Source: Candidatus Beckwithbacteria bacterium GW2011_GWC1_49_16
GTDB lineage: Bacteria > Patescibacteriota > Microgenomatia > UBA1400 > CG1-02-47-37
Length of the DNA: 64,000 nt
Assembly: GCA_001029675.1 (NCBI GenBank)
Contig: CP011210.1
Coordinates: forward strand, 193-64,192
Direction of reading: 5' to 3'
Shown here: positions 623-63,028 of the stretch, piece by piece
How the letters are laid out: the number at the start of each line of letters is the position of its first letter
Position numbering within the stretch: the first letter of the stretch is position 1
Notes under the pieces: generated by a model
Databases searched by the model: none
What the model was told of the DNA's origin: nothing
What the model saw: only the letters and a program-made list of their open reading frames with translations
Made by a program: the position numbers and the translations under genes

Positions 623-1321
623 TTATTTACCCAAATTCTGCTGCTGTTTGGCGTACCAGTCGAGCACTTTATCAAGCTGCCCGGCGTCAAAGTCGGGGAA
701 TAAGGTGGCGGTAAAGTAGAGCTGGGCGTAGGCGGCTTGGTAAAGCATGAAGCCGGAAAAGCGCGAGTGGCCGCCGGGGCGGATGAGAAGGTCCGGGTCG
801 GGGAGGTCATGGGTGTCGAGGAAATTAGAGAAATTTTCTTCCGAAAATTTCTCTAGTTCGTAGTTCGTAGTTCGTAGTTCGTTGACAAATTTTTTGATGG
901 CGCGCAAGATTTCATCTCTGCCGCCATAGTTGATGGCAATGGTGACGGTAATTTTCTGATTATCTTTTGATTTTTGACGCCAATCTTCCAAAGATTTTTT
1001 GATGTCAGGTGGGAGCTTGGTAAGATCGCCGATTAAATTGAGCTTGGCACCCTTTTTTTGGTACTTGTCGACGTTTTCGTTAAAAAAACTTCGCAGTAAT
1101 TTGAAGTATCTATCGACCCAAGTTTTACCGCGGCGCCAGTTTTCGGTAGAAAAGACCCAGAAAGTAAGATAGGGAATTTTTAAATCAATGCAGCGGTCGA
1201 CCAAAGACTCCATGGTGACGCGGACAGCGTGTTCGTGGCCGGAAAACTCGGGCAAGTTTTTTAGTTTGGCCCAACGGCGGTTGCCGTCGGCGATGATGGC
1301 GATGTGCCGGGGAAGAGTCAT
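623..1321 (-). CDS. uppS: Undecaprenyl diphosphate synthase (cis-prenyltransferase)
   Basis: HIAIIADGNRRWA motif, and the C-terminal RPGG...SGFMLYQAAYAQLYF matches the UppS family. Confidence 0.93.
   Translation of the reverse strand: MTLPRHIAIIADGNRRWAKLKNLPEFSGHEHAVRVTMESLVDRCIDLKIPYLTFWVFSTENWRRGKTWVDRYFKLLRSFFNENVDKYQKKGAKLNLIGDLTKLPPDIKKSLEDWRQKSKDNQKITVTIAINYGGRDEILRAIKKFVNELRTTNYELEKFSEENFSNFLDTHDLPDPDLLIRPGGHSRFSGFMLYQAAYAQLYFTATLFPDFDAGQLDKVLDWYAKQQQNLGK
855..882. repeat. Exact heptad tandem repeat (AGTTCGT)x4 inside uppS; in the coding sense it is (NACGAAC)x4 and encodes NELRTTNYELE
   Basis: Read directly from the sequence at 855-882. Confidence 0.9.
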
Positions 1322-2323: not shown

Positions 2324-4045
2324 GTGATGGGTAAATCGATAGTTAAAACCATAGTTAAAACGATAGCTTTGGTGGCAGTGTTGGCAGTAGTGGTAGTGGG
2401 GGTAAGGGCGATTGACCCGATTGACGATTTACAGCAGCAGATTAATCAGTTGTCAAGGGCGCGGGAGCAAAGCATTGCCGCTACCAAACCCTTGGAGGGC
2501 GAGCTGGCCCGGTTGACAGAGCAGCTAAACAGTATCAGGGCCGGGATCGAGCAGGCCAAGGGGCAGTTACGGGGCCTTGAGGCCAGCATTGCCGCGCGGG
2601 AAGCAGATTTTGCGGTCCAGTACGCCTTACTCTCCGAGCGGGTGGTGTCTTTTTACAAGGCCAGCCGGGCGCCGTCGGGACTGGTGCTTTTGTTGACCGG
2701 CGGGACGTCGTCAAACTTGATTTCGGACCTATTTTACCGGCAAACGGTGACTGACCAGGACAAACAGATTATCGCCCAGATTACGGCGGATTTGTTGCAG
2801 CTGGAAAAAGACAAACAAAAAGTCGAGGCGGATAGAGTCAGGTTGGCGGATTTACAGGCAAAGCTTGATAAAGAGGCGGAGTTTTTTGAGGGGGAGATTG
2901 CCGGGGCCAAGTCTTATCAGGCAAAATTGTCGCAACAGATCGCCTCACTGACGGCGCAGCAGCAGCAGATTATTGCCGCCAAACTGGGCAGTCTCAATTT
3001 GCCCCAGTCTTTGGGGGCGGGGCCTTTGTATTGTACCGACGACCGAAAACTTGACCCTGGGTTTGGCAGCGCCTTTGCTTTTTATACTTATGGTATTCCC
3101 CACAGGGTGGGGATGAACCAGTACGGGGCTTATGGCCGGTCCAAGGTAGGGCAGGATTACAGAGCGATTTTGAACGCCTACTTTAACAGTATTAGTTTTG
3201 AGGCAGGCAAGGAAAATATTCAGATTCAGGTTCAGGGGCAGGGGTCGATGCCGTTGGACGAATATTTACTGGGGATTTACGAGATGCCGGAAAGTTGGCC
3301 CTTGGAGGCGTTGAAGGCCCAGGCGGTGGCGGCCAGAAGCTATGCTTTGGCTTATACCGACAACGGCGCCAAAGAGATTTGCACCACCCAAGCGTGCCAG
3401 GTGTGGAAGCCGGAGAAGAAAACGGGTGCTTGGAAAACGGCGGTGGAGGCGACGCGGGGAGAGATTATGGTGAGCGGCGGCCAGACGGTGACGGGTTGGT
3501 ATTCTTCGACCGACGGCGGTTACACCTTTTACAACAGCGACGTTTGGGGCGGGAGCCAGCGGCCGTGGACCAAAAGAATGAGGGACACTTCGGGCGACGT
3601 CGGCGGTTTTGGCGATCTTAATGAGCGGGCTTACGACAAAGAGTCTCCGTGTTTTTATGCGGCGCAAGGTTGGAGAAATGAATACGGCAAGTCGGCCTGG
3701 CTTAAGGGTGAGGAGGTGGCCGACATTGCCAACGTGATTTTGCTGGCGAGAGCCGATTCGTCGGTACGAGCCCATCTTTATCAGGTAGACAAACCTAACC
3801 CCGAAGGCACCGATACCTGGGACGCGGCTCGCGTCAGGCAAGAGTTGTCCAGTCGAGGGGTAACGCCTTTAAGCGGAGGAGCGGGCAGTGTAGCGATCGG
3901 AGCCGATTTTGGCGAAGGCAGAACCACCCAGGTGACGGTCGACGGGGTGGCTTTTACCGGATCGGAGTTTAAAGACTGGTTTAACCTTAGGGCGCCGGCG
4001 AACATCCAGATTGTCGGGCCGCTGTATAACGTTGAAAGGAGATAA
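2324..4045 (+). CDS. SpoIID/LytB-domain protein with N-terminal TM anchor and coiled coil
   Basis: N-terminal transmembrane segment, a long Q/A/L/E-rich coiled coil, and a C-terminal domain with SpoIID-like motifs (AVAARSYAL, GWYSSTDGGYT). Confidence 0.7.
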   Translation: MMGKSIVKTIVKTIALVAVLAVVVVGVRAIDPIDDLQQQINQLSRAREQSIAATKPLEGELARLTEQLNSIRAGIEQAKGQLRGLEASIAAREADFAVQYALLSERVVSFYKASRAPSGLVLLLTGGTSSNLISDLFYRQTVTDQDKQIIAQITADLLQLEKDKQKVEADRVRLADLQAKLDKEAEFFEGEIAGAKSYQAKLSQQIASLTAQQQQIIAAKLGSLNLPQSLGAGPLYCTDDRKLDPGFGSAFAFYTYGIPHRVGMNQYGAYGRSKVGQDYRAILNAYFNSISFEAGKENIQIQVQGQGSMPLDEYLLGIYEMPESWPLEALKAQAVAARSYALAYTDNGAKEICTTQACQVWKPEKKTGAWKTAVEATRGEIMVSGGQTVTGWYSSTDGGYTFYNSDVWGGSQRPWTKRMRDTSGDVGGFGDLNERAYDKESPCFYAAQGWRNEYGKSAWLKGEEVADIANVILLARADSSVRAHLYQVDKPNPEGTDTWDAARVRQELSSRGVTPLSGGAGSVAIGADFGEGRTTQVTVDGVAFTGSEFKDWFNLRAPANIQIVGPLYNVERR

Positions 4046-7418: not shown

Positions 7419-7794
7419 GGGGATGATTTGATTCGACGAGATTGGCTCTTTGACACCTGCAAGCAGACTTTGGTCAGTAGTCTTAAAACATCGACCAAAA
7501 AACAGCTGTCAACACAATTGCCAGCAAAGTAAAGACTTTCATTGCGGAAGCATTTGAAGTTTTTACTCCTTCTCGCTTAGCTTTGGCTGTAGCGTAAGGC
7601 ATTCTGGCCCACTTTGTTTGCGGAGTCGGGTCAGGGTGTAAACAAACACAAACCGTAAGCTAGCAGTTGACTCGGGCTAGCCCAAATTAAGAGTCAAACT
7701 TTTCTCCCACGAAGCCTCGGCGGAGTGGGATAAGCTTGTAGACGGTTAAAAGACTTTTTCTCGGACGAGGGCTCATTACCCTCCATCTCCACCC
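7419..7794 (+). ncRNA. ssrA: tmRNA (transfer-messenger RNA)
   Basis: The 5' end GGGGATGATTTGATTCGACG matches the tmRNA consensus. The 3' end GGACGAGGGCTCATTACCCTCCATCTCCACC gives a T-arm plus an acceptor that pairs with the 5' end, including G3:U70. There is an internal tag ORF ending ...SRLALAVA-TAA. It sits directly downstream of smpB and is about 376 nt long. Confidence 0.75.
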
Positions 7795-11197: not shown

Positions 11198-11282
11198 GGT
11201 GGGGTGCTCCGAATCGGTTAAGGAACCGGTCTTGAAAACCGGCGCCCGCAAGGGCTTGTGAGTTCGAGTCTCACCCCCACCG
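11198..11282 (+). tRNA. tRNA-Ser (anticodon UGA)
   Basis: Acceptor GGTGGGG/CCCCACC; anticodon stem CCGGT/ACCGG with loop CTTGAAA; long variable arm GCCCgcaaGGGC; T-arm GTGAG-TTCGAGT-CTCAC. Folded by hand. Confidence 0.75.
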
Positions 11283-11294
11283 CTAGAATTGTCT

Positions 11295-11840
11295 TTAAGA
11301 GCGGAAGCCAATCTCGGAAATTTCAATTGGGTTGGACTCAAGTTTGTAAGGCCGATCTTTGGCAAAATCTACCATGTCAGGCGATCTGTAAAGCTGATAG
11401 CCTTCTTTTATAAACAGCCCAACAACCTCAATAGGAGTAATCTGAGGGGTGTAGAAAGTTCTGTCGGACAGTGAATAAGCCCAAATGAAAGAATCTCTCA
11501 TTTGGTGGAGACGGGCACCTTTGGGAGTATAGATGAGTCGTTTTGTATCGCCCAAAACTGCGACCGTACCCGACATTTGTTCTTGCGGGTCGGATATAAA
11601 AGGAAAGTACCGGTAGCTGACCCCCGAGCCGATTATCGGAGCCCTGATGTCGTTATCTATGTTTAGCGGCGCGCTCAAATTTTCGAGCTGTTGGTCGGTA
11701 ATAGCGTGGATGACAAACGGAAGACCTGAGCCAATCAGATTTTCTACCAAGGCAACCAGGGGTTGTCGTGGATGGGTGACAACCTCGAACTTAATAGTCT
11801 TAGGGCTGATTTCTCTGGTAAAAAACGGCCTTTCGGACAT
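11295..11840 (-). CDS. Hypothetical protein
   Basis: 181-aa ORF with non-repetitive composition. No family recognised. Confidence 0.45.
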   Translation of the reverse strand: MSERPFFTREISPKTIKFEVVTHPRQPLVALVENLIGSGLPFVIHAITDQQLENLSAPLNIDNDIRAPIIGSGVSYRYFPFISDPQEQMSGTVAVLGDTKRLIYTPKGARLHQMRDSFIWAYSLSDRTFYTPQITPIEVVGLFIKEGYQLYRSPDMVDFAKDRPYKLESNPIEISEIGFRS

Positions 11841-11886
11841 AAGTTTGAGGATTATATCATTGTTTAGAGGCTGTTGGGTTTAATTT

Positions 11887-11892
11887 GATATA
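11887..11892 (+). promoter_or_regulatory. Candidate -10 box (TATAAT) upstream of tRNA-Ser(GCU)
   Basis: TATAAT lies 13 nt upstream of the tRNA start. Confidence 0.3.
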
Positions 11893-11904
11893 ATGGGTTT
11901 TACT

Positions 11905-11991
11905 GGAGGAGTCGCTTAGTTGGTCCATAGCGGTGGTTTGCTAAACCGCTGAGGCGCAAGCCTCACGTGGGTTCGAATCCCACCTCCTCCG
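11905..11991 (+). tRNA. tRNA-Ser (anticodon GCU)
   Basis: Acceptor GGAGGAG/CTCCTCC; anticodon loop TTGCTAA; long variable arm; T-arm GTGGG-TTCGAAT-CCCAC. Confidence 0.75.
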
Positions 11992-12085
11992 CCTTCGTTT
12001 CACGACTTGCTCGCTCGGCGATTTAGCCGGCTTCGCATTCGGAAGCTTCGGCGGACAGGTCCGCTTTGGTGTAGAATAAATAAAT

Positions 12086-12649
12086 ATGACTGCCCTGTTT
12101 AGAAAACCAAGCCCTTTAAAAAAAGAAGAGGTTAAGGAATCGGAAGCGCCTAAGGCTCCTGTAAAAGTGGAAACGCTACTTTCCTGGCAGGCGCCGGTGC
12201 GGCCGTTTAAGAAAAGAGATCGGGAATACTACACCACCATTGGTGCCATCGGCTTTTTGCTGGCGGTGATACTCCTTTTTTTGAAAGAGTGGCTGTTGAT
12301 CGCTGTGATTGCGGCCTTGATGTTTGTGGCTTATGTTTTGGCCACGGTCGAGCCGGAAAAAACCAGCCACGAGATTACCACGGTGGGAATTCTAACGGGG
12401 GATAAGACTTACAAATGGGAAGACTTGAAGCGGTTTTGGTTTGAGACCAAGTGGAGCGATAAGATTTTACACGTCGACACCAAGCTTAGCTTTCCGGGAA
12501 GACTGATGCTCCTTTTAGGCGATACCAGCGAAGAAGAAGTGAAGAAAATTCTTGAACAGCACGTTCAGGAAGAGATACCCGAGGCGACGTTTATGGACAG
12601 GTCGGCTAAGTGGTTATCGGAAAAAGTGCCTTTGGAAAAAGAAAGCTGA
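12086..12649 (+). CDS. Hypothetical membrane protein
   Basis: 187-aa ORF with two adjacent transmembrane helices (IGAIGFLLAVILLF..., LLIAVIAALMFVAYVLA). Confidence 0.5.
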   Translation: MTALFRKPSPLKKEEVKESEAPKAPVKVETLLSWQAPVRPFKKRDREYYTTIGAIGFLLAVILLFLKEWLLIAVIAALMFVAYVLATVEPEKTSHEITTVGILTGDKTYKWEDLKRFWFETKWSDKILHVDTKLSFPGRLMLLLGDTSEEEVKKILEQHVQEEIPEATFMDRSAKWLSEKVPLEKES

Positions 12650-12663
12650 TAAAATACAGGTAG

Positions 12664-12735
12664 GCGCCCATAGTTGAATGGATACAACGGAAGATTGCGG
12701 ATCTTCTGGTGAAGGTTCGATTCCTTCTGGGCGCA
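12664..12735 (+). tRNA. tRNA-Arg (anticodon reads GCG; unusual)
   Basis: Acceptor GCGCCCA/TGGGCGC; D-arm GTTG-aatggata-CAAC; anticodon stem GAAGA/TCTTC with loop TTGCGGA; T-arm GAAGG-TTCGATT-CCTTC. Confidence 0.6.
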
Positions 12736-12846
12736 CCCATGAGCATTGACTCGGCAGACAAAAATTTTTAGCAGTGCTCACTCGGCGCCACATGGATATG
12801 CGCCATCTTCCGCGCTGGAAAATTTGTCTGCCTGCGTCTGACTATT

Positions 12847-12929
12847 GGAGGGGTGTGCCGAATGGTAAGGCACCGCTCTCGAAAAGCGGCGCCCGCAAGG
12901 GCTTGCAGGTTCGACTCCTGTCCCCTCCG
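12847..12929 (+). tRNA. tRNA-Ser (anticodon CGA)
   Basis: Acceptor GGAGGGG/CCCCTCC; anticodon stem CCGCT/AGCGG with loop CTCGAAA; long variable arm; T-loop TTCGACT. Confidence 0.75.
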
Positions 12930-12937
12930 CAACGTAA

Positions 12938-13011
12938 GCGCCTGTAGCTCAGAGGATTAGAGCGTCTGCCTCCGGAGCAGAAGGTCGTGAGTTCGAGTCT
13001 CACCAGGCGTA
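12938..13011 (+). tRNA. tRNA-Arg (anticodon CCG)
   Basis: Acceptor GCGCCTG/CAGGCGT; anticodon stem TCTGC/GCAGA with loop CTCCGGA; T-arm GTGAG-TTCGAGT-CTCAC. Confidence 0.75.
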
Positions 13012-13013
13012 CT

Positions 13014-13481
13014 ATGAAATCAAAGTCACGACGAGAGTTTTCGGCCGGGGGAGTGGTATACAGGAAACTCGAAGTACGAAACTCGAAGCACGAAACTGTT
13101 TGGTTGGTGTGCAAGCACTCGGGCTATCATCGCTGGGTATTGCCTAAAGGTTTGGTGGAGAAGGGGGAGAGTTTAAAAGACACGGCGGTGCGGGAAGTAG
13201 AGGAGGAGTGTGGCGTTAGAGCCAAAGTAATTGCTAAAATCCCCGAGCCGGAGCGCTACGTTTACACCATGGCTGGGCAAAAAGTGTTTAAGCTGGTGAC
13301 TTATTTTTTGATGGAGTATCAGTCGGGAAACATAAAAGATCACTCGTGGGAGATGGAAGAAGTGGAGTGGTTAGAGTTTGACCAAGCGGTCAAAAGGGTC
13401 GAGTTTAAGGGGGCAAAAGAAGTGTTGGAAAAGGCTAAAAAAATCAGAGACGAGCTGAAGCTAAAACAGAAGTTGATATAA
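13014..13481 (+). CDS. Nudix hydrolase
   Basis: Nudix box GLVEKGESLKDTAVREVEEECGV. The start is taken at the ATG at 13014, just after the tRNA-Arg; the 12987 start in the ORF track overlaps that tRNA. Confidence 0.8.
   Translation: MKSKSRREFSAGGVVYRKLEVRNSKHETVWLVCKHSGYHRWVLPKGLVEKGESLKDTAVREVEEECGVRAKVIAKIPEPERYVYTMAGQKVFKLVTYFLMEYQSGNIKDHSWEMEEVEWLEFDQAVKRVEFKGAKEVLEKAKKIRDELKLKQKLI
13068..13095. repeat. CGAA-heptad x4 element (ctcgaag tacgaaa ctcgaag cacgaaa) in frame in the Nudix gene
   Basis: Read directly from the sequence. It encodes KLEVRNSKHET, which is an insertion relative to the usual Nudix N-terminal strand. Confidence 0.8.
13476..13481 (+). promoter_or_regulatory. Candidate -10 box (TATAAT) upstream of tRNA-Ser(GGA)
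   Basis: TATAAT lies 12 nt upstream of the tRNA start. Confidence 0.3.
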
Positions 13482-13493
13482 TAGGAGAGTCTT

Positions 13494-13582
<89 letters not shown>

Positions 13583-17317: not shown

Positions 17318-17389
17318 TCCGGGGTAGCTCAATGGCAGAGCAAGCGCCTGTTAAGCGCAAGGTTGCGAGTTCGAATCTCGCCTCCGGAG
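17318..17389 (+). tRNA. tRNA-Asn (anticodon GUU)
   Basis: Acceptor TCCGGGG/CTCCGGA with a U1; anticodon loop CTGTTAA, as in the E. coli Asn tRNA; T-arm GCGAG-TTCGAAT-CTCGC. Confidence 0.8.
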
Positions 17390-39570: not shown

Positions 39571-40124
39571 CAGTGTTAAGTACGAAGCTCGAAGCACGAA
39601 ATTCGAAAGCTGCTTTTAGCCTGATTGAGATTTTGGTGGCCCTGGGCGGGTTGGTGGTGTTGAGCGTTTTGGCGATCTCGTTTTTCTTTTTGACTTTGAC
39701 GCAAAGGGATGAGGCGGTGGCGGAATCTAGCGCTGTGGAGCAGACGGAGGCCGCCTTTGCCTTAGTGGGCAGGGCGGTGAGGGCGGCTCAAACCATCACG
39801 GTATCAGAGGCGGGGACGAGGTTGGAGTTAACCGGCGCCAGCGAGTGCTGGTTGTTTGATTGGGACGAAATCAATGGAGAATTAAAGTACGGCCGGACGC
39901 AAGGATCAAGCTGCAGCTTGCCGGCTGGAGCAGACGAGCGGGTGACCAGCCAGACGGCAGAAATAGAAAACGTCAGTTTCAGCTTGCTGGCGCCGGATGA
40001 TTCAAGTCGGAGCATAGAAATGACCTTAGGGGTGGCGGTTTTCCGCCCCTTGGCTTCGAGTCAACAAACGTTTTCTCAAGTGTTTGTCAATGTGGTTGAT
40101 GAGAGGGGAGAGGAAGATGATTAA
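39561..40124 (+). CDS. Prepilin-type minor pilin with extended leader containing the CGAA-heptad element
   Basis: The leader STKLEARNSKAA is followed by FSLIEILVAL. The start codon is uncertain (ATG at 39561, or GTG at 39573). Confidence 0.6.
   Translation: MEVTVLSTKLEARNSKAAFSLIEILVALGGLVVLSVLAISFFFLTLTQRDEAVAESSAVEQTEAAFALVGRAVRAAQTITVSEAGTRLELTGASECWLFDWDEINGELKYGRTQGSSCSLPAGADERVTSQTAEIENVSFSLLAPDDSSRSIEMTLGVAVFRPLASSQQTFSQVFVNVVDERGEEDD
39581..39608. repeat. CGAA-heptad x4 element (tacgaag ctcgaag cacgaaa ttcgaaa) in the pilin leader
   Basis: Read directly from the sequence. Confidence 0.8.
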
Positions 40125-49370: not shown

Positions 49371-50697
49371 TTTTCAAAAAGTGGCTGGCGCAGGACATGC
49401 AGGGGTCATAGGCGCGGATTAAGACTTCCATGTCGTGGGTGAGTTCTTGTTTTAATTCCACTCCGGGAGAGTCCATTCGGCCACTCCCGGAGTGTTTTTT
49501 CCCGGTGTGTTGTTGGAGTTTCCGGTTGACAAGGATTTTAAGGTCGTTTTCGATGTTTAATTGATTTTGGCCGGTGGGGACTAAGATTTCTGCGTCTTTG
49601 ACCACATTGTCTTCAATCGTCAGGCGGTGATAAAGAATACCCCGGGGGGCCTCGATGACGCCAAAGCCGGTACCCGAAATGACGGCAGGTTTAACCGGCG
49701 GTTCGGGGTTAAAACTGGTAGAAGATAAGATGGCAATAGAGTCGTCGATGGCATTTAAGATCTCGATGGCTTGGGCCAGGTTGTTGTGGTAGAGATTGTC
49801 GGAGGGGAATTTTTGTAAAGCCTGCGCGGCGTCTTTTTGGGTTTGGGGGTTTAAGGAGGCCTTATTGAGATTGAGTCGGGCCAAGGCGCCGGTCATGTAG
49901 AACCCCTTTTTGTAGGTGTAGGCAGAGGCGTGGGAGTAGGGCAGGTCGACTCGATTAAGTTGGCCGCGGTAGTCTTCGCTGGGAATGTTGATGCCGTCGG
50001 TAGAGACTATTTGGCCGGCAAGGAACGAGTAATTTTCTCCCCTTAAAGCCAGATAGGGGATGTGTTGGGTTTGATTTAGGGGGGCTTTGAGAAAAGTGTC
50101 GATGAGGTTGAGGACGGCCGGGCGGACGGCGGTAAGTTTGGCTATAATTTCTTTTTGTTTTTCCGGGTCAGGGAATTTTAAAAAGCCGCCGACGGTGGGA
50201 TAGGGGGCGTGAACGCTTCTGCCGCCGGTGAGAATAGACAGGTTGTTGCCGGCGTCTTTGACGGCAAAGGCGTCGTGCAAGAGTTGGTGCTGGCGGGGGT
50301 CTTGGTCGTCAAAATCTAGGAGTGAATCTTTTTGGAAGAGGTCGGGGAGGACGAAGATGTAAAGATGGAGGGCATGGTCTCGAATAATCAAACCATTTAC
50401 CACCAGGCGGCGCAAGATTAAGGTTTGAGGCGAGGGAGTAATTTTGAAAGCGTTTTCGACGGCTTTGATGGCAGCCAGAATGTGGGCATTACTACAGGTG
50501 CCGCAGATTCTGGCCAAAAGCGTCGGTGCGGCCAGCGCCGCTTTGCCGCGGATGGCTTGGGTGTAAAATCTTTTGTATTCGGTGATTTTGAAGTTTAATT
50601 TTTCGACTTGGCCGTTTCTGATGGTGAGGTCCAGGCCGGCACCGCCTTCGATTTTGCTGATTTCTTCTAAAGAGAGATCGAGGTTAATTTGGTGCAT
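49357..50697 (-). CDS. [NiFe]-hydrogenase large (catalytic) subunit, group 3-like
   Basis: N-terminal RICGTCSNAH and C-terminal DPCMSCASH, which are the Ni-Fe ligand motifs. Confidence 0.88.
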   Translation of the reverse strand: MHQINLDLSLEEISKIEGGAGLDLTIRNGQVEKLNFKITEYKRFYTQAIRGKAALAAPTLLARICGTCSNAHILAAIKAVENAFKITPSPQTLILRRLVVNGLIIRDHALHLYIFVLPDLFQKDSLLDFDDQDPRQHQLLHDAFAVKDAGNNLSILTGGRSVHAPYPTVGGFLKFPDPEKQKEIIAKLTAVRPAVLNLIDTFLKAPLNQTQHIPYLALRGENYSFLAGQIVSTDGINIPSEDYRGQLNRVDLPYSHASAYTYKKGFYMTGALARLNLNKASLNPQTQKDAAQALQKFPSDNLYHNNLAQAIEILNAIDDSIAILSSTSFNPEPPVKPAVISGTGFGVIEAPRGILYHRLTIEDNVVKDAEILVPTGQNQLNIENDLKILVNRKLQQHTGKKHSGSGRMDSPGVELKQELTHDMEVLIRAYDPCMSCASHFLKINWN

Positions 50698-55690: not shown

Positions 55691-56440
55691 ATGTTGGTGA
55701 TCGAAAATCTCAAGGTTAAGGCAGAGGGCAAACTGATTCTTAGCGGGGTGAACCTGACGATTAAACCGGGTGAGGTGGTGGCAGTGATGGGGCCGAACGG
55801 GTCGGGTAAGAGCACGCTGGCGTATAGTTTGGCGGGGCACCCTAACTATACAGTAGTAAATTCGAAGCACGAAGCACGAAATCCGAAAGCGTTTTTGAAC
55901 GGGAAGAATCTGTTAAAGATGAGTCCGGACGAGCGGGCCAAGGCCGGGTTGTTTTTGGCCTTTCAGTATCCGGTGGGGGTGGCAGGGGTGACTTTAAACA
56001 GTTTTTTGAGGCTAGCTTTCGAACAGGTAAAAGGGAAGAAAATGGCTCCGTTTGAGTTTAGAAAAAAGCTTTTCAAGGCAGCCCGCGAGTTGAAAATTAA
56101 ACAAGAACTTTTGGAGCGATCGGTGAATGAGGGTTTTTCCGGAGGAGAGAAAAAGAAAGCGGAGGTGTTGCAGCTGGCTATCCTTGCTCCCAAGTACGCC
56201 ATTTTAGACGAGACCGATTCTGGTTTGGACATCGACGCTTTGAGACAGGTAGCCGAGGGAGTCAACCGGGTAAGGAATAAAAATCCCAAAATGGGAGTGA
56301 TTTTGATTACTCACTATCAAAGGATTTTAAAATACATTGAGCCTGACCGGGTGGTGGTGATCAAGGCGGGGAAAGTGGTTAAAGAGGGAGGGAGAGAATT
56401 GGTTAACCAGCTGGAGGAGAAAGGCTATGAAGGGATTTAA
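55691..56440 (+). CDS. sufC: Fe-S cluster assembly ATPase SufC
   Basis: Walker [18 protein letters not shown] and LDETDSGLD. It carries a 10-aa insertion [10 protein letters not shown]. Confidence 0.93.
55861..55888. repeat. CGAA-heptad x4 element (ttcgaag cacgaag cacgaaa tccgaaa) inserted in frame in sufC
   Basis: Read directly from the sequence. Confidence 0.85.
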
Positions 56441-62296: not shown

Positions 62297-62998
62297 ATGC
62301 AAAAGCCCCAACAGTTTACCGGCAAGGTGGCAGAACACATCTTGATCAACAATAAATTTCAGTACCTGCATATTGAGCTGACTCATCCTTTCAGGCTCGA
62401 GTTTGAGGCGGGCCAGTACGTTTCTTTTGCCATCGGCGGGGGAGAAAGAAGGAGTTATTCGATTGCTTCTGAACCGCAGATAGACAGCAGTATCGAGGTT
62501 TGCGTCGACGTTACCCCGGAGGGTAAGGGTTCAAGTTTTTTGAAAAGCTTAAAACCGGGCGATGAGGTTAGCTTTTTGGCGCCTTTGGGAAAGTTTAAGG
62601 TAGAAGACGAGTCCAAGTTGTTGTTTGTGGCAACCGGCTCGGGGATTACGCCGGTGAGAAGCATGATTTTGGATTTACTGGAGTATAAAAAAGACCCAAG
62701 GCAAATCCAGCTTCACTGGGGGTTGCGGCACGTCGATGACATGTTTTGGGTCGAGCACTTTCGCAAATTCCATGAGTACTACGATAACTTTACCTTTCAC
62801 CTGACTTTGAGCCAGCCGCCGGAGCACTGGCCCTTGTGCGCCGGCTATGTGACCGATTGCGTCAGAGACGAGCTGACGTTGGATTCAAGCTGGGGGGTGT
62901 ATCTTTGCGGCAATAAATTTATGATCGATGACGCCACCAAGCTGGTAACCAAAATGGGCGTACCCCCAGAGCAGATTCACACGGAGAAATTCTTTTAA
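62297..62998 (+). CDS. FNR-family FAD/NAD(P)-binding oxidoreductase, tandem paralog
   Basis: RSYSIAS, GKGSSFL, LFVATGSGITP. Start taken at MQKPQQF (62297). Confidence 0.78.
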   Translation: MQKPQQFTGKVAEHILINNKFQYLHIELTHPFRLEFEAGQYVSFAIGGGERRSYSIASEPQIDSSIEVCVDVTPEGKGSSFLKSLKPGDEVSFLAPLGKFKVEDESKLLFVATGSGITPVRSMILDLLEYKKDPRQIQLHWGLRHVDDMFWVEHFRKFHEYYDNFTFHLTLSQPPEHWPLCAGYVTDCVRDELTLDSSWGVYLCGNKFMIDDATKLVTKMGVPPEQIHTEKFF

Positions 62999-63000
62999 TT

Positions 63001-63028
63001 TACAATTTACAATTTACAATTTACAATT
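63001..63028. repeat. Exact heptad tandem repeat (TACAATT)x4 in the intergenic region upstream of the ferredoxin gene
   Basis: Read directly from the sequence; each unit resembles a -10 hexamer (TACAAT). Confidence 0.9.

Follow-up and report, generated by a model that had tools for sequence, protein, structure and literature searches.

The genome of this groundwater Candidatus Beckwithbacteria carries arrays of four NNCGAAN heptads in frame within unrelated genes. With moderate confidence, we propose that these arrays form a dispersed heptanucleotide SSR family that is prone to slippage and filtered by reading frame and encoded peptide, and that they are not transposed elements. In the window (the whole stretch of DNA that was analysed, 64,000 nt), CGAA at 7-nt spacing gives exactly four runs, each of four units, and no run of two or three units. 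A fifth CGAA array of four heptads lies just beyond the window, in a mevalonate kinase gene. All five arrays in the surveyed ~76 kb of the ~1.05-Mb genome are intragenic, in frame, on the sense strand and exactly four units long. Their hosts (sufC, a pilin-like gene, a Nudix gene, uppS and the mevalonate kinase gene) are unrelated, so the original prediction was right that such arrays occur in frame in unrelated genes. Arrays of this kind can reside in frame within essential genes of a minimal CPR genome. The features of the window are:

623 to 1321, minus strand: uppS, undecaprenyl diphosphate synthase, host gene
821 to 907, minus strand: variable segment of uppS, consisting of the heptad array and an adjacent 16-nt inverted repeat at 823-858
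856 to 883, minus strand: uppS array, AACGAAC TACGAAC TACGAAC TACGAAC, encoding NELRTTNYEL
13014 to 13481, plus strand: Nudix (Ap4A hydrolase-like) host gene, with its start set at 13014 because the open reading frame start at 12987 overlaps a tRNA
13068 to 13095, plus strand: Nudix array, CTCGAAG TACGAAA CTCGAAG CACGAAA (pattern ABAB'), encoding KLEVRNSKHET
39573 to 40124, plus strand: pilin-like host gene in a type IV pilus cluster, with its start taken from the gene calls of other assemblies
39581 to 39608, plus strand: pilin array, TACGAAG CTCGAAG CACGAAA TTCGAAA, encoding most of the leader peptide
55691 to 56440, plus strand: sufC, Fe-S cluster assembly ATPase, 249 aa, host gene
55861 to 55888, plus strand: sufC array, TTCGAAG CACGAAG CACGAAA TCCGAAA, encoding 10 aa; a 31-mer when the preceding AAA is included
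62997 to 63028, plus strand: second heptanucleotide array, (AATTTAC)x4.6, intergenic, beginning on the stop codon of an FNR-like gene

The sufC, pilin and Nudix arrays were present with the predicted sequences and positions. For uppS the predicted four-heptad array was also there, one base off the expected 855-882. A search for (NNCGAAR)x4 with up to two mismatches, which the original prediction had suggested as a check, matched only the known array loci, and 100 shuffles gave an expectation of 0.00. With CGAAN3 x4 and up to three mismatches, nine matches were found against 0.77 expected. TRF and our own period scans returned a period of 7 or 14 at all loci (14 by TRF for the Nudix array). The shuffles exclude chance or low complexity as the origin of the arrays, and their identity across independent NCBI, ENA, JGI and Logan assemblies excludes an assembly artefact. 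The Nudix array is the same in L002-L006 and the pilin array in L007-L010, and all arrays other than that of sufC have four units in every assembly that covers them. The same genome also contains four-unit heptad arrays of unrelated units (AATTTAC, ACTTAAA and ACGCAAA/ACTCAAA). Several motif readings were considered from the sequence, namely a methylation or restriction motif (TCGA, TTCGAA), likeness to a tRNA T-loop and CsrA GGA motifs; they were dropped because most units (CACGAAA, TCCGAAA) do not contain these motifs.

The sufC array provides the only direct view of a change in unit number. Compared with its closest homologues, SufC has a net insertion of 7 aa (21 nt, three units), and the same +7 aa is found against the solved structures PDB 2d2e and 2d3w. 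The predicted extra residues are therefore real, but they number seven and not ten. They sit in the loop between the strands at 53-55 and 66-69, and residues 56-65 are coil in the AlphaFold model. Contig L001 matches the window over 18,089 nt except for one 7-nt gap, which is the loss of one sufC heptad; the remaining three units split sufC into reading frames of 66 aa and 173 aa. This gap is the sole indel among about 20 aligned loci of the same population (>200 kb), and the three-unit allele is a single variant taken from a short-read assembly, not from reads. Four units were found in the three sufB places that were read as DNA (L021-L023), with which 21 similar contigs were grouped by the products of their neighbouring genes. 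A metagenome scan for sufC alleles of one to five units through their flanks was uninformative on polymorphism because only one contig, with four units, was matched.

The Nudix array encodes a loop that connects the first two strands. The pilin copy falls in the cleaved leader, (M)LSTKLEARNSKAA, which is array-encoded for the most part and is followed by FSLIEILVAL; leaders of pilin-like homologues have 4-15 aa or more and end in G|F. UppS aligns without gaps to PDB 1f75, 6acs and 6szg, so its net length change is 0. In other members of the same population (loci L264-L267), an unrelated 102-nt segment takes the place of the uppS variable segment. The term 'inserted', which the original prediction used for all copies, is thus apt for SufC and not for UppS, and the Nudix and UppS arrays have counterparts in other species. 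Across all array sites the net length changes are 0, +6, +7, +8, about +9 and +29 aa; since they are not uniform, insertion length fails to discriminate slippage from insertion (21 against 28-31 nt). No pair of filled and empty sites was found among near-identical genomes.

Orthologues in other CPR lineages indicate that the position of an array is kept while its units are replaced. Nudix, UppS and SufC orthologues have four-heptad arrays at the same sites, made of different units that often alternate as ABAB. The Nudix orthologues L270 and L271 carry (TGCAAAG CGCAAAA)x2 and (CGAAAAA CTAAAAA)x2 with identical boundaries, UppS of L268 and L269 has (TTCGAAA)x4 at the site of the window array, and SufC of L272 has (CAAGAAA CAAAAAA)x2 in the same loop. 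The positional counterparts of the Nudix and UppS arrays occur in species at 62-70% identity, and these two arrays are therefore not private recent insertions. Within each orthologous array the units are homogenised and lineage-specific, so that the CGAA core, constant within our genome, becomes GCAAA, CGAAAAA/CTAAAAA or CAAGAAA/CAAAAAA elsewhere. The encoded peptides diverge as well (KCKAQNAKRKI, RKTKNEKLKT, NSKFEIRNSK, NELRTTNYEL). A protein site that keeps its array while the unit sequence is replaced amounts to concerted evolution at the 28-nt scale. The conserved entity is the nucleotide array, as the original prediction had it, because orthologous arrays encode different peptides and arrays also occur in non-coding DNA of other phyla. 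The argument given for this, a difference in reading frame between copies, carries no weight: the codon phases of the five arrays are 2, 2, 0, 0 and 0, and every phase yields the same cyclic heptapeptide because a 7-nt unit runs through the three frames every 21 nt.

On the slippage-and-filter reading, the arrays would originate and turn over via slipped-strand mispairing or within-array gene conversion, by 7 or 14 nt at a time. A unit loss of this kind is seen in L001, and the ABAB patterns together with the lineage-specific units at orthologous sites suggest the remaining steps. Since 7 is not a multiple of 3, the host gene stays open only when the unit number falls in one class modulo 3; purifying selection on the housekeeping genes would therefore hold each array at four units, with its sequence homogenised within the lineage. 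Inside genes, only heptads that are free of stops and code for soluble peptide in every frame would be expected to persist. Three NNCGAAR units, read in three frames, give x-E-x-R-N/S-S/T/P-K, and by computation the sense-strand units rank among the most hydrophilic 1-34% of stop-free heptads; read antisense, they are median to hydrophobic or contain a stop. Such a peptide filter would account for the A-rich sense orientation and for the fact that the arrays lie in surface loops or a leader that is cleaved off. The arrays would need no cellular function, and their effect would be a hydrophilic loop of 7-10 residues and a locally higher frameshift rate.

Several observations stand against slippage. 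It predicts many arrays of two and three units, and this genome has none. In other phyla, counts drop sharply beyond four units instead of steadily (3 units n=21, 4 units n=16 and 5 units n=2 among non-ascertained runs). Four units predominate also in the non-coding arrays of these phyla, for which frame cannot account. The ABAB patterns point to steps of 14 nt, and these would shift the frame; there is a single copy-number variant, the remaining arrays being invariant. Slippage leaves unexplained the four-unit size, a sharp AAA boundary, a unit grammar common to several phyla and a shared 31-mer of sufC.

The AAA(YNCGAAR)x4 architecture had at least 120 matches, in many phyla, in a scan of GTDB genomes. 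Those listed include Verrucomicrobiota, Planctomycetota, Acidobacteriota, Desulfobacterota, Bacteroidota, Saccharibacteria and other Patescibacteria, among more. Viral contigs contain CGAA-heptad arrays of four or more units too. A 31-mer identical to the sufC copy is present in L164 and L184, one a Saccharibacteria MAG and the other an Aminicenantes MAG. Of 149 arrays among the matches listed, 116 consist of exactly four units, and 42 are arranged as convergent inverted pairs separated by a ~90-nt spacer; such pairs were seen in other phyla only, and their arms show no unit-by-unit co-variation. Positions -3 to -1 at the left boundary are 80-92% A across phyla; this conserved AAA can also be read as a partial unit. 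The unit grammar appears in the choice of the following heptad, which begins with CA-CGAA after 31 of 64 units ending in G and after 5 of 268 ending in A. UvrA and LolD of other phyla contain in-frame copies, and a Saccharibacteria transketolase carries a composite insert that adds about 29 aa in frame. When classified by open reading frames alone, 38 arrays were sense, 34 antisense and 77 intergenic-like; these orientation counts were not used because spurious long reading frames in GC-rich genomes confound them.

Conceivably, AAA(YNCGAAR)x4 is the product of an undescribed, conserved and sequence-specific process. This could be a mobile module of minute size, or the enzymatic writing of four heptads where DNA has ends or gaps; we regard this as a tentative idea that is unlikely to be correct. 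If it were true, the process would be active in many bacterial phyla and in their phages, leaving modules of 28-31 nt both between genes, where many would flank terminator-like hairpins in convergent pairs, and within the reading frames of essential genes such as SufC, UvrA, LolD and transketolase. The four-unit size of G-rich heptamers, earlier put down to G-quadruplexes, would then be a property of this process and not of G4 folding. In a concrete form, a ready-made module of ~31 nt, single or in convergent pairs that flank a hairpin, would be inserted by an event akin to transposition, by repair synthesis from a template or by an activity that phages carry. The module would spread horizontally between phyla, and the intragenic copies would be those that survived because they fell in frame into permissive loops, as with RPEs. 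The many phyla and viral contigs, the sharp and conserved left boundary, the common grammar, the identical 31-mers, the prevalence of four units, the MITE- or REP-like pairs and the in-frame copies in transketolase, UvrA and LolD all favour it. Yet solitary arrays have neither terminal inverted repeats nor target-site duplications, neither length, 28 or 31 nt, is divisible by 3, net changes range from 0 to +9 aa, uppS has no insertion at all, and the arrays are associated with no candidate enzyme. Same-site arrays with identical boundaries and lineage-specific units point to inheritance with concerted evolution and not to repeated hits, and the arms of paired arrays do not co-vary. Overall we judge this form rather improbable.

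A functional alternative is that the arrays serve an oligomeric nucleic-acid-binding protein. It would contact four sites 7 nt apart, either on unstructured mRNA as HutP or TRAP do or on single-stranded DNA like cold-shock proteins, and would thereby couple expression or decay among the host mRNAs. Four direct repeats that are fixed in number and kept at orthologous sites would suit such a protein, as would a CGAA core whose 7-nt spacing is strict in five genes of a single genome. Folding predictions leave the arrays unstructured and hence accessible, all five lie on the transcribed sense strand, and non-coding copies favour four units as well. The predicted binding-site reading is nevertheless weakened because the unit sequence, including the recognition core, varies between orthologous arrays (CGAA, GCAAA, CGAAAAA/CTAAAAA), and the same genome has four-heptad arrays of unrelated units. 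Moreover, the host genes have no pathway in common, all but one of the five arrays are deep within coding sequence and not in leaders, and neither a cognate protein nor a matching Rfam family was identified. We find this account distinctly unlikely. The arrays could also be adaptive contingency loci in which the reversible gain or loss of one unit toggles the host genes, as in neuO or Haemophilus phase variation. A unit length not divisible by 3, the location within coding sequence, the natural frameshifted sufC allele with three units, the pilin-like surface protein among the hosts and the precedent of neuO are in line with this; the Nudix product P0244, truncated to 108 aa, may be a second frameshift variant. 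On the other hand, no host other than the pilin-like gene encodes a surface protein, and most are essential housekeeping genes (SufC, UppS, mevalonate kinase). Tracts of just four units, unlike the long contingency tracts, imply a low mutability compared with known ones (neuO has 3 to 53 repeats), and sufC keeps four units in L021-L023 and the contigs grouped with them, as do the other arrays throughout, which makes this role very doubtful to us. Lastly, the SufC, pilin-leader and Nudix peptides are alike and all peptides are hydrophilic, as would be expected if the heptapeptide x-E-x-R-N-S-K were itself selected, for example as an interaction or sorting tag, with the DNA periodicity as a by-product. 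Orthologous arrays encode different peptides, however, their hosts belong to different compartments (cytoplasmic enzymes and a cleaved leader), and the same DNA arrays are intergenic in other phyla. Perfect DNA repeats with identical synonymous positions point to a process at the nucleotide level; a selected peptide should show conservation with codon variation among strains, and the opposite is observed. Such selection is therefore extremely improbable.

The original prediction compared the arrays with Rickettsia palindromic elements (RPEs). RPEs are palindromic and about 100-150 bp long; like MITE-like insertions, they occur in frame in unrelated conserved proteins, are tolerated in surface loops and are conserved as DNA elements and not as peptides. 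In structure, the analogy does not hold for the CGAA arrays, which are unstructured direct heptad repeats of 28-31 nt, not an insertion in the case of uppS, and evolve in concert at orthologous sites. No inverted repeat was found in or around the sufC, pilin and Nudix arrays, no target-site duplication flanks any of the four window arrays, and their 28 nt are not a multiple of 3. RNA folding of the four arrays with their flanks, another check that had been suggested, was no better than for shuffled sequence (z 0.2-1.3). Rfam at gathering thresholds returned only tRNA, tmRNA and rRNA in the window and nine related loci.

We know of no accepted mechanism for the abundance of heptanucleotide repeats, and the same architecture and unit grammar recurring across phyla may be a clue to it. 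To our knowledge, positional conservation combined with unit turnover between species is not described for the heptanucleotide families named below. As a class such repeats have been recognised since 2007 as the most abundant long SSRs in most bacterial genomes surveyed (PMC4692102, PMC4679880), so that only part of the claim of an undescribed family stands: literature searches found no description of this CGAA heptad family, and the exact strings CGAAATCCGAAA, TTTCGGATTTCG, FRISDF and SEIRNPK gave primer matches only. The known families include 'STRR' of Calothrix and Nostoc, TAACTGA of Beggiatoaceae and cyanobacteria (PMC4679880) and GGGNATC of Xanthomonas and Nostoc (PMC4692102). The CGAA arrays resemble them in having a 7-nt tandem unit in low copy number at many dispersed loci per genome, and in being specific to a genome or clade and yet puzzlingly spread over distant phyla; the heptad peptide read through three frames has already been discussed for such families as a filter on location. 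Unlike them, the CGAA arrays are mosaics in which NN and R vary under a shared grammar. A preference for four units has been reported for GGGNATC repeats (PMC4692102, PMC4679880). The CGAA core, however, is neither G-rich nor forms a G-quadruplex, so the G4 account of four units is inapplicable here, and G-quadruplexes are not the general cause of this size because a family that is not G-rich shows it too.

Two other known systems have repeats inside genes. The heptanucleotide repeat of neuO (AAGACTC, in the 5' coding region of an E. coli K1 O-acetyltransferase gene) slips by single units (PMC13001214). As in our arrays, its frame is set by the unit number modulo 3 and three units encode a heptapeptide; its single-unit slippage variants coexist in a population, as the four- and three-unit sufC alleles may do here. 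However, neuO is a single phage-borne surface-modification locus with frequent OFF alleles, whereas here several housekeeping loci have four units and one OFF allele is seen (sufC in L001). Borg tandem repeats reportedly have units within reading frames that are multiples of 3 and often longer, whereas our 7-nt unit keeps the frame by count alone and the arrays are short and of fixed size. The Borg study (PMC9879509) reports that those repeats create intrinsically disordered protein regions; perfect, fast-evolving tandem repeats within reading frames that add hydrophilic and probably disordered peptide would be common to both.

In practice, arrays of this type yield frameshifted or split gene calls in MAGs, as for sufC in one assembly, and the lineage-specific loops that they encode can mislead alignments of marker proteins. 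The described heptanucleotide families lie mostly between genes and are depleted in coding sequence, unlike the CGAA arrays, none of which (0 of 5) is intergenic. The only intergenic case here is (AATTTAC)x4.6, which has a unit number close to that of the CGAA arrays and a different unit.

CGAA at 7-nt spacing occurs in the window as four runs of exactly four units each, and runs of two or three such units are absent from it. These arrays, the host ORF of the sufC copy and the further heptad arrays of the same genome (three of them just outside the window, on L264, a uppS locus of the same population) are the following:

55861-55888, plus strand: sufC array TTCGAAG CACGAAG CACGAAA TCCGAAA, inside a 249-aa ORF
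55691-56440, plus strand: this 249-aa ORF, SufC by homology and by match to solved SufC structures
39581-39608, plus strand: array TACGAAG CTCGAAG CACGAAA TTCGAAA in a pilin-like gene
13068-13095, plus strand: array CTCGAAG TACGAAA CTCGAAG CACGAAA in a Nudix gene
856-883, minus strand: array AACGAAC TACGAAC TACGAAC TACGAAC in uppS
62997-63028, intergenic between FNR-like and ferredoxin genes: perfect heptad array (AATTTAC)x4.6
L264 13593-13632, A-rich strand is sense: (CTCGAAA)x4 in the mevalonate kinase gene, just outside the window
L264 18175-18208, A-rich strand is sense: (ACGCAAA ACTCAAA)x2 in an ECF sigma factor gene
L264 12102-12133, A-rich strand is sense: about four ACTTAAA units in a diphosphomevalonate-decarboxylase-like (MVD-like) gene

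The original prediction had the sufC copy right in sequence and position and placed the pilin-like and Nudix copies correctly; its (NACGAAC)x4 in uppS is also present, on the minus strand at 856-883 instead of 855-882. A search of the window for (NNCGAAR)x4 with up to two mismatches matched the CGAA-array loci only and gave nothing in 100 dinucleotide-preserving shuffles, and a looser heptad pattern gave 9 matches against 0.77 expected. Among short periods, arrays of at least 28 nt in the window have period 7 only, bar one period-9 case. With about 76 kb of this genome covered, the observation is borne out and proves more general than at first sight. The intergenic (AATTTAC)x4.6 begins on the TAA stop codon that closes the FNR-like gene and runs to 6 nt upstream of the ferredoxin gene; in number of units, about four, it resembles the CGAA arrays, but the unit itself is unrelated and the peptide that it would encode is hydrophobic. 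Across the window (1-64000) GC skew stays strongly positive (0.14-0.32 per 4 kb), with nearly every gene on the plus strand; the window is therefore part of a single replichore and its genes are co-oriented.

The most informative result is the replacement of units at conserved four-heptad sites. In three species with 62-70% protein identity, the Nudix site holds four heptads within the common flanks AAA ... NN-GTT/GAG-TGG, as follows:

Window: CTCGAAG TACGAAA CTCGAAG CACGAAA
L270 (Nudix orthologue locus): TGCAAAG CGCAAAA TGCAAAG CGCAAAA
L271 (Nudix orthologue locus): CGAAAAA CTAAAAA CGAAAAA CTAAAAA

Likewise, a 63% identical UppS orthologue has GTAAA(TTCGAAA)x4 at the site of the window's (TACGAAC)x4, with an inverted repeat after the array in both, and a 58% identical SufC orthologue from Patescibacteria has (CAAGAAA CAAAAAA)x2 in the same loop; relatives closer to the window SufC have nothing at that site. 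Units are thus homogenized within a lineage, often as ABAB, and differ between lineages, with the count constant at four. A kept count with replaced units is the signature of concerted evolution in a tandem array whose length is constrained, unless arrays were gained repeatedly at the few loops that tolerate them.

The host proteins were also compared for the lineage-specific 10-aa insertions that had been expected. The SufC array is an insertion, as predicted, with a net length of exactly 7 residues instead of 10: these are absent at the array point both from the closest full-length homologues (60-73% identity, 242 aa) and from the T. thermophilus and E. coli structures, and correspond to 21 nt, the length of three units. 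In an AlphaFold model (mean pLDDT 88.7), residues 56-65 are predicted as coil between strands 53-55 and 66-69. The UppS array, on the other hand, is not an insertion, as alignment to three solved UPPS structures shows no gap through NELRTTNYEL. The Nudix loop has 4, 8 or 13 residues among relatives and 13 in the window protein. In the pilin-like protein the array encodes almost the entire leader, (M)LSTKLEARNSKAA, which precedes FSLIEILVAL; leaders of homologues have 4-15 residues or more and end in G|F. The prepilin cleavage site adjoining this array (39609-39623) reads Ala-Ala-Phe instead of the usual Gly-Phe, and processing of the protein may therefore be affected. The mechanical start of the Nudix ORF at 12987 overlaps a tRNA (12938-13011), so the true start is probably 13014. 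The window encodes a tmRNA (7419-7794) and seven tRNAs, six of them clustered at 11198-13580 and one apart at 17318-17389.

Codon phases are 2, 2, 0 and 0 for the CGAA arrays of the window and 0 for the mevalonate kinase array. It had been argued that the different frames in sufC/pilin and Nudix make the nucleotide element the conserved entity. This argument falls, since 7 equals 1 mod 3 and every phase therefore reads the same cyclic heptapeptide, x-E-x-R-N/S-S/T/P-K. Sense-strand units carry no stop and, when stop-free heptads are ranked by computed hydrophilicity, fall within the top 1-34%; read as reverse complement, the units are median to hydrophobic or contain stops. All five CGAA arrays in the examined part of this genome are in sense orientation, in loops or a leader. 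RNA folding of the arrays gave no structure and Rfam no family match.

The source population, groundwater Candidatus Beckwithbacteria (Patescibacteria/CPR), is represented by many assemblies (NCBI RIFCSP and UBA genomes, ENA, JGI, Logan), including one contig of 1.05 Mb. About 20 loci from these were aligned over more than 200 kb at 99.75-100% identity and, scaffold gaps aside, contained a single indel: the loss of one heptad (CGAAGCA) from the sufC array of ENA contig k141_200298, which is its sole difference from the window over 18,089 nt. The resulting 3-unit sufC, known from this one assembly and not from reads, is frameshifted and was split by gene calling into two genes (66 and 173 aa). 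SufC has 249 aa in all three places read for the neighbouring sufB, with which the other 21 of 24 contigs are grouped, and four is also the unit number of the pilin, Nudix and uppS arrays in every assembly aligned. The arrays are thus stable, yet at least one whole-unit slippage allele exists at assembly level. Two products from other assemblies are truncated or internally gapped: that of Nudix in P0244 (108 aa, 100% identical, JGI contig of 48.6 kb) and UppS in P0126 (164 aa, GW2011_GWB1_47_15). They may reflect further frameshift alleles at the arrays of these genes.

Scanning GTDB, one genome per species, with CGAARYNCGAARYNCGAARYNCGAAR gave at least 120 matches, where we estimate about two by chance in the whole collection under uniform base composition. 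Those listed are from Verrucomicrobiota, Planctomycetota, Acidobacteriota, Desulfobacterota, Bacteroidota, Saccharibacteria, other Patescibacteria and more; with a looser pattern, many matches in viral contigs were also listed. Exactly four units occur in 116 of 149 arrays among the matches listed, in scans ascertained on four or more units. Non-ascertained runs at the listed loci number 106 with two units, 21 with three, 16 with four and 2 with five, and thus fall sharply after four. In a logo of 113 listed four-unit arrays, the left boundary is sharp (80-92% A at -3 to -1, random beyond) and the right side decays as CAAAT.C.AA. Unit usage among the matches listed is skewed: after units ending in G, 31 of 64 next units are CA-CGAA, against 5 of 268 after units ending in A, a rule with which the window arrays comply. 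A Saccharibacteria MAG (L164) and an Aminicenantes MAG (L184) contain exact copies of the sufC 31-mer AAATTCGAAGCACGAAGCACGAAATCCGAAA.

A convergent inverted partner lies about 90 nt away in 42 of the 149 listed arrays (about 28%), often around a GC-rich hairpin downstream of a stop codon, with the pair starting directly behind that codon. Such pairs fold into long hairpins and may therefore be bidirectional terminator-like or REP-like elements. Predicted free energies are -37 to -124 kcal/mol for pairs in L146, L159, L175, L184, L188, L261 and others, whose two arms show no unit-for-unit match. Solitary in-frame arrays, with gene context read from ORFs alone, occur in other phyla in long ORFs, for example those for UvrA (+8 aa versus T. 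maritima UvrA), a LolD-like ATPase (+6 aa), NadE-like and SNF2-like proteins. A Saccharibacteria transketolase C-terminal chain (L158, about 2690-3499) has an in-frame composite insert of about 29 aa. This insert combines a CGAA heptad array, a GC-rich hairpin and A-rich heptads, and comes closest among the sequences studied to a composite element like the Rickettsia palindromic elements (RPEs).

Among bacterial SSRs, heptanucleotide repeats are known to be over-represented (PMC4692102, PMC4679880), with dispersed families such as TAACTGA (PMC4679880), cyanobacterial heptamers and GGGNATC, whose four-unit preference was attributed to G-quadruplexes (PMC4692102). In neuO, a 7-nt repeat within the coding region slips one unit at a time, and only one class of unit numbers leaves the gene in frame (PMC13001214). 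The window arrays resemble these families as dispersed tandem 7-mers with a whole-unit variant and apparent concerted evolution, and are most likely of this kind. Their particular form inside genes would be explained by two filters. A gene would stay in frame only at unit numbers equal to 1 mod 3, of which four is the smallest that is still a repeat; the 21 nt added to SufC fit this exactly. Translation in three frames would limit intragenic arrays to stop-free, hydrophilic sense units, matching the sense orientation of all five and their location in loops and a leader.

Slippage with these filters does not explain why four units dominate also where frame is irrelevant, nor the absence of 2- or 3-unit arrays from the part of this genome examined. 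The ABAB pattern implies out-of-frame 14-nt steps or gene conversion, and the AAA boundary, the G-to-CA grammar and the identical 31-mers across phyla look like a defined module and not like independent slippage. These features keep alive a mobile or 'written module' model. Against it, solitary arrays are without inverted ends or target duplications, net length changes are uneven (0 to +9 aa, +29 for a composite), uppS has no insertion and units in orthologous arrays are lineage-specific. The RPE-like selfish insertion of the original prediction has partial support only. The same unexplained features would also suit an array of protein-binding sites, which is less likely than a mobile module; against such an array, the core is not conserved between orthologous arrays and several unrelated heptad units stand side by side in one genome. 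No description of a CGAA-core array family was found in the searchable literature, in agreement with the original prediction, and we classify the arrays as a CGAA-core, four-unit heptanucleotide family, in frame in CPR housekeeping genes and recurring across phyla.

The uppS array is also part of a variable segment. Four loci of the same population (L264-L267) are 99.9% identical to the window over more than 10 kb on one side of this segment and 820 nt on the other, and have an unrelated 102 nt (L264 10415-10516) in place of window 821-907 (uppS, minus strand). The window allele consists of the heptad array and a 16-nt inverted repeat (823-858); the alternative contains CACTCCCGGAGTG palindromes. 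The UppS loop is thus a variable spot within one population, with a cassette-like polymorphism inside an essential gene. The palindrome motif of the alternative allele recurs at window 49459-49494, where a pair of CACTCCSGGAGTG near-palindromes followed by TTTTTT resembles a terminator, and it may therefore represent a second small repeat family of this genome.
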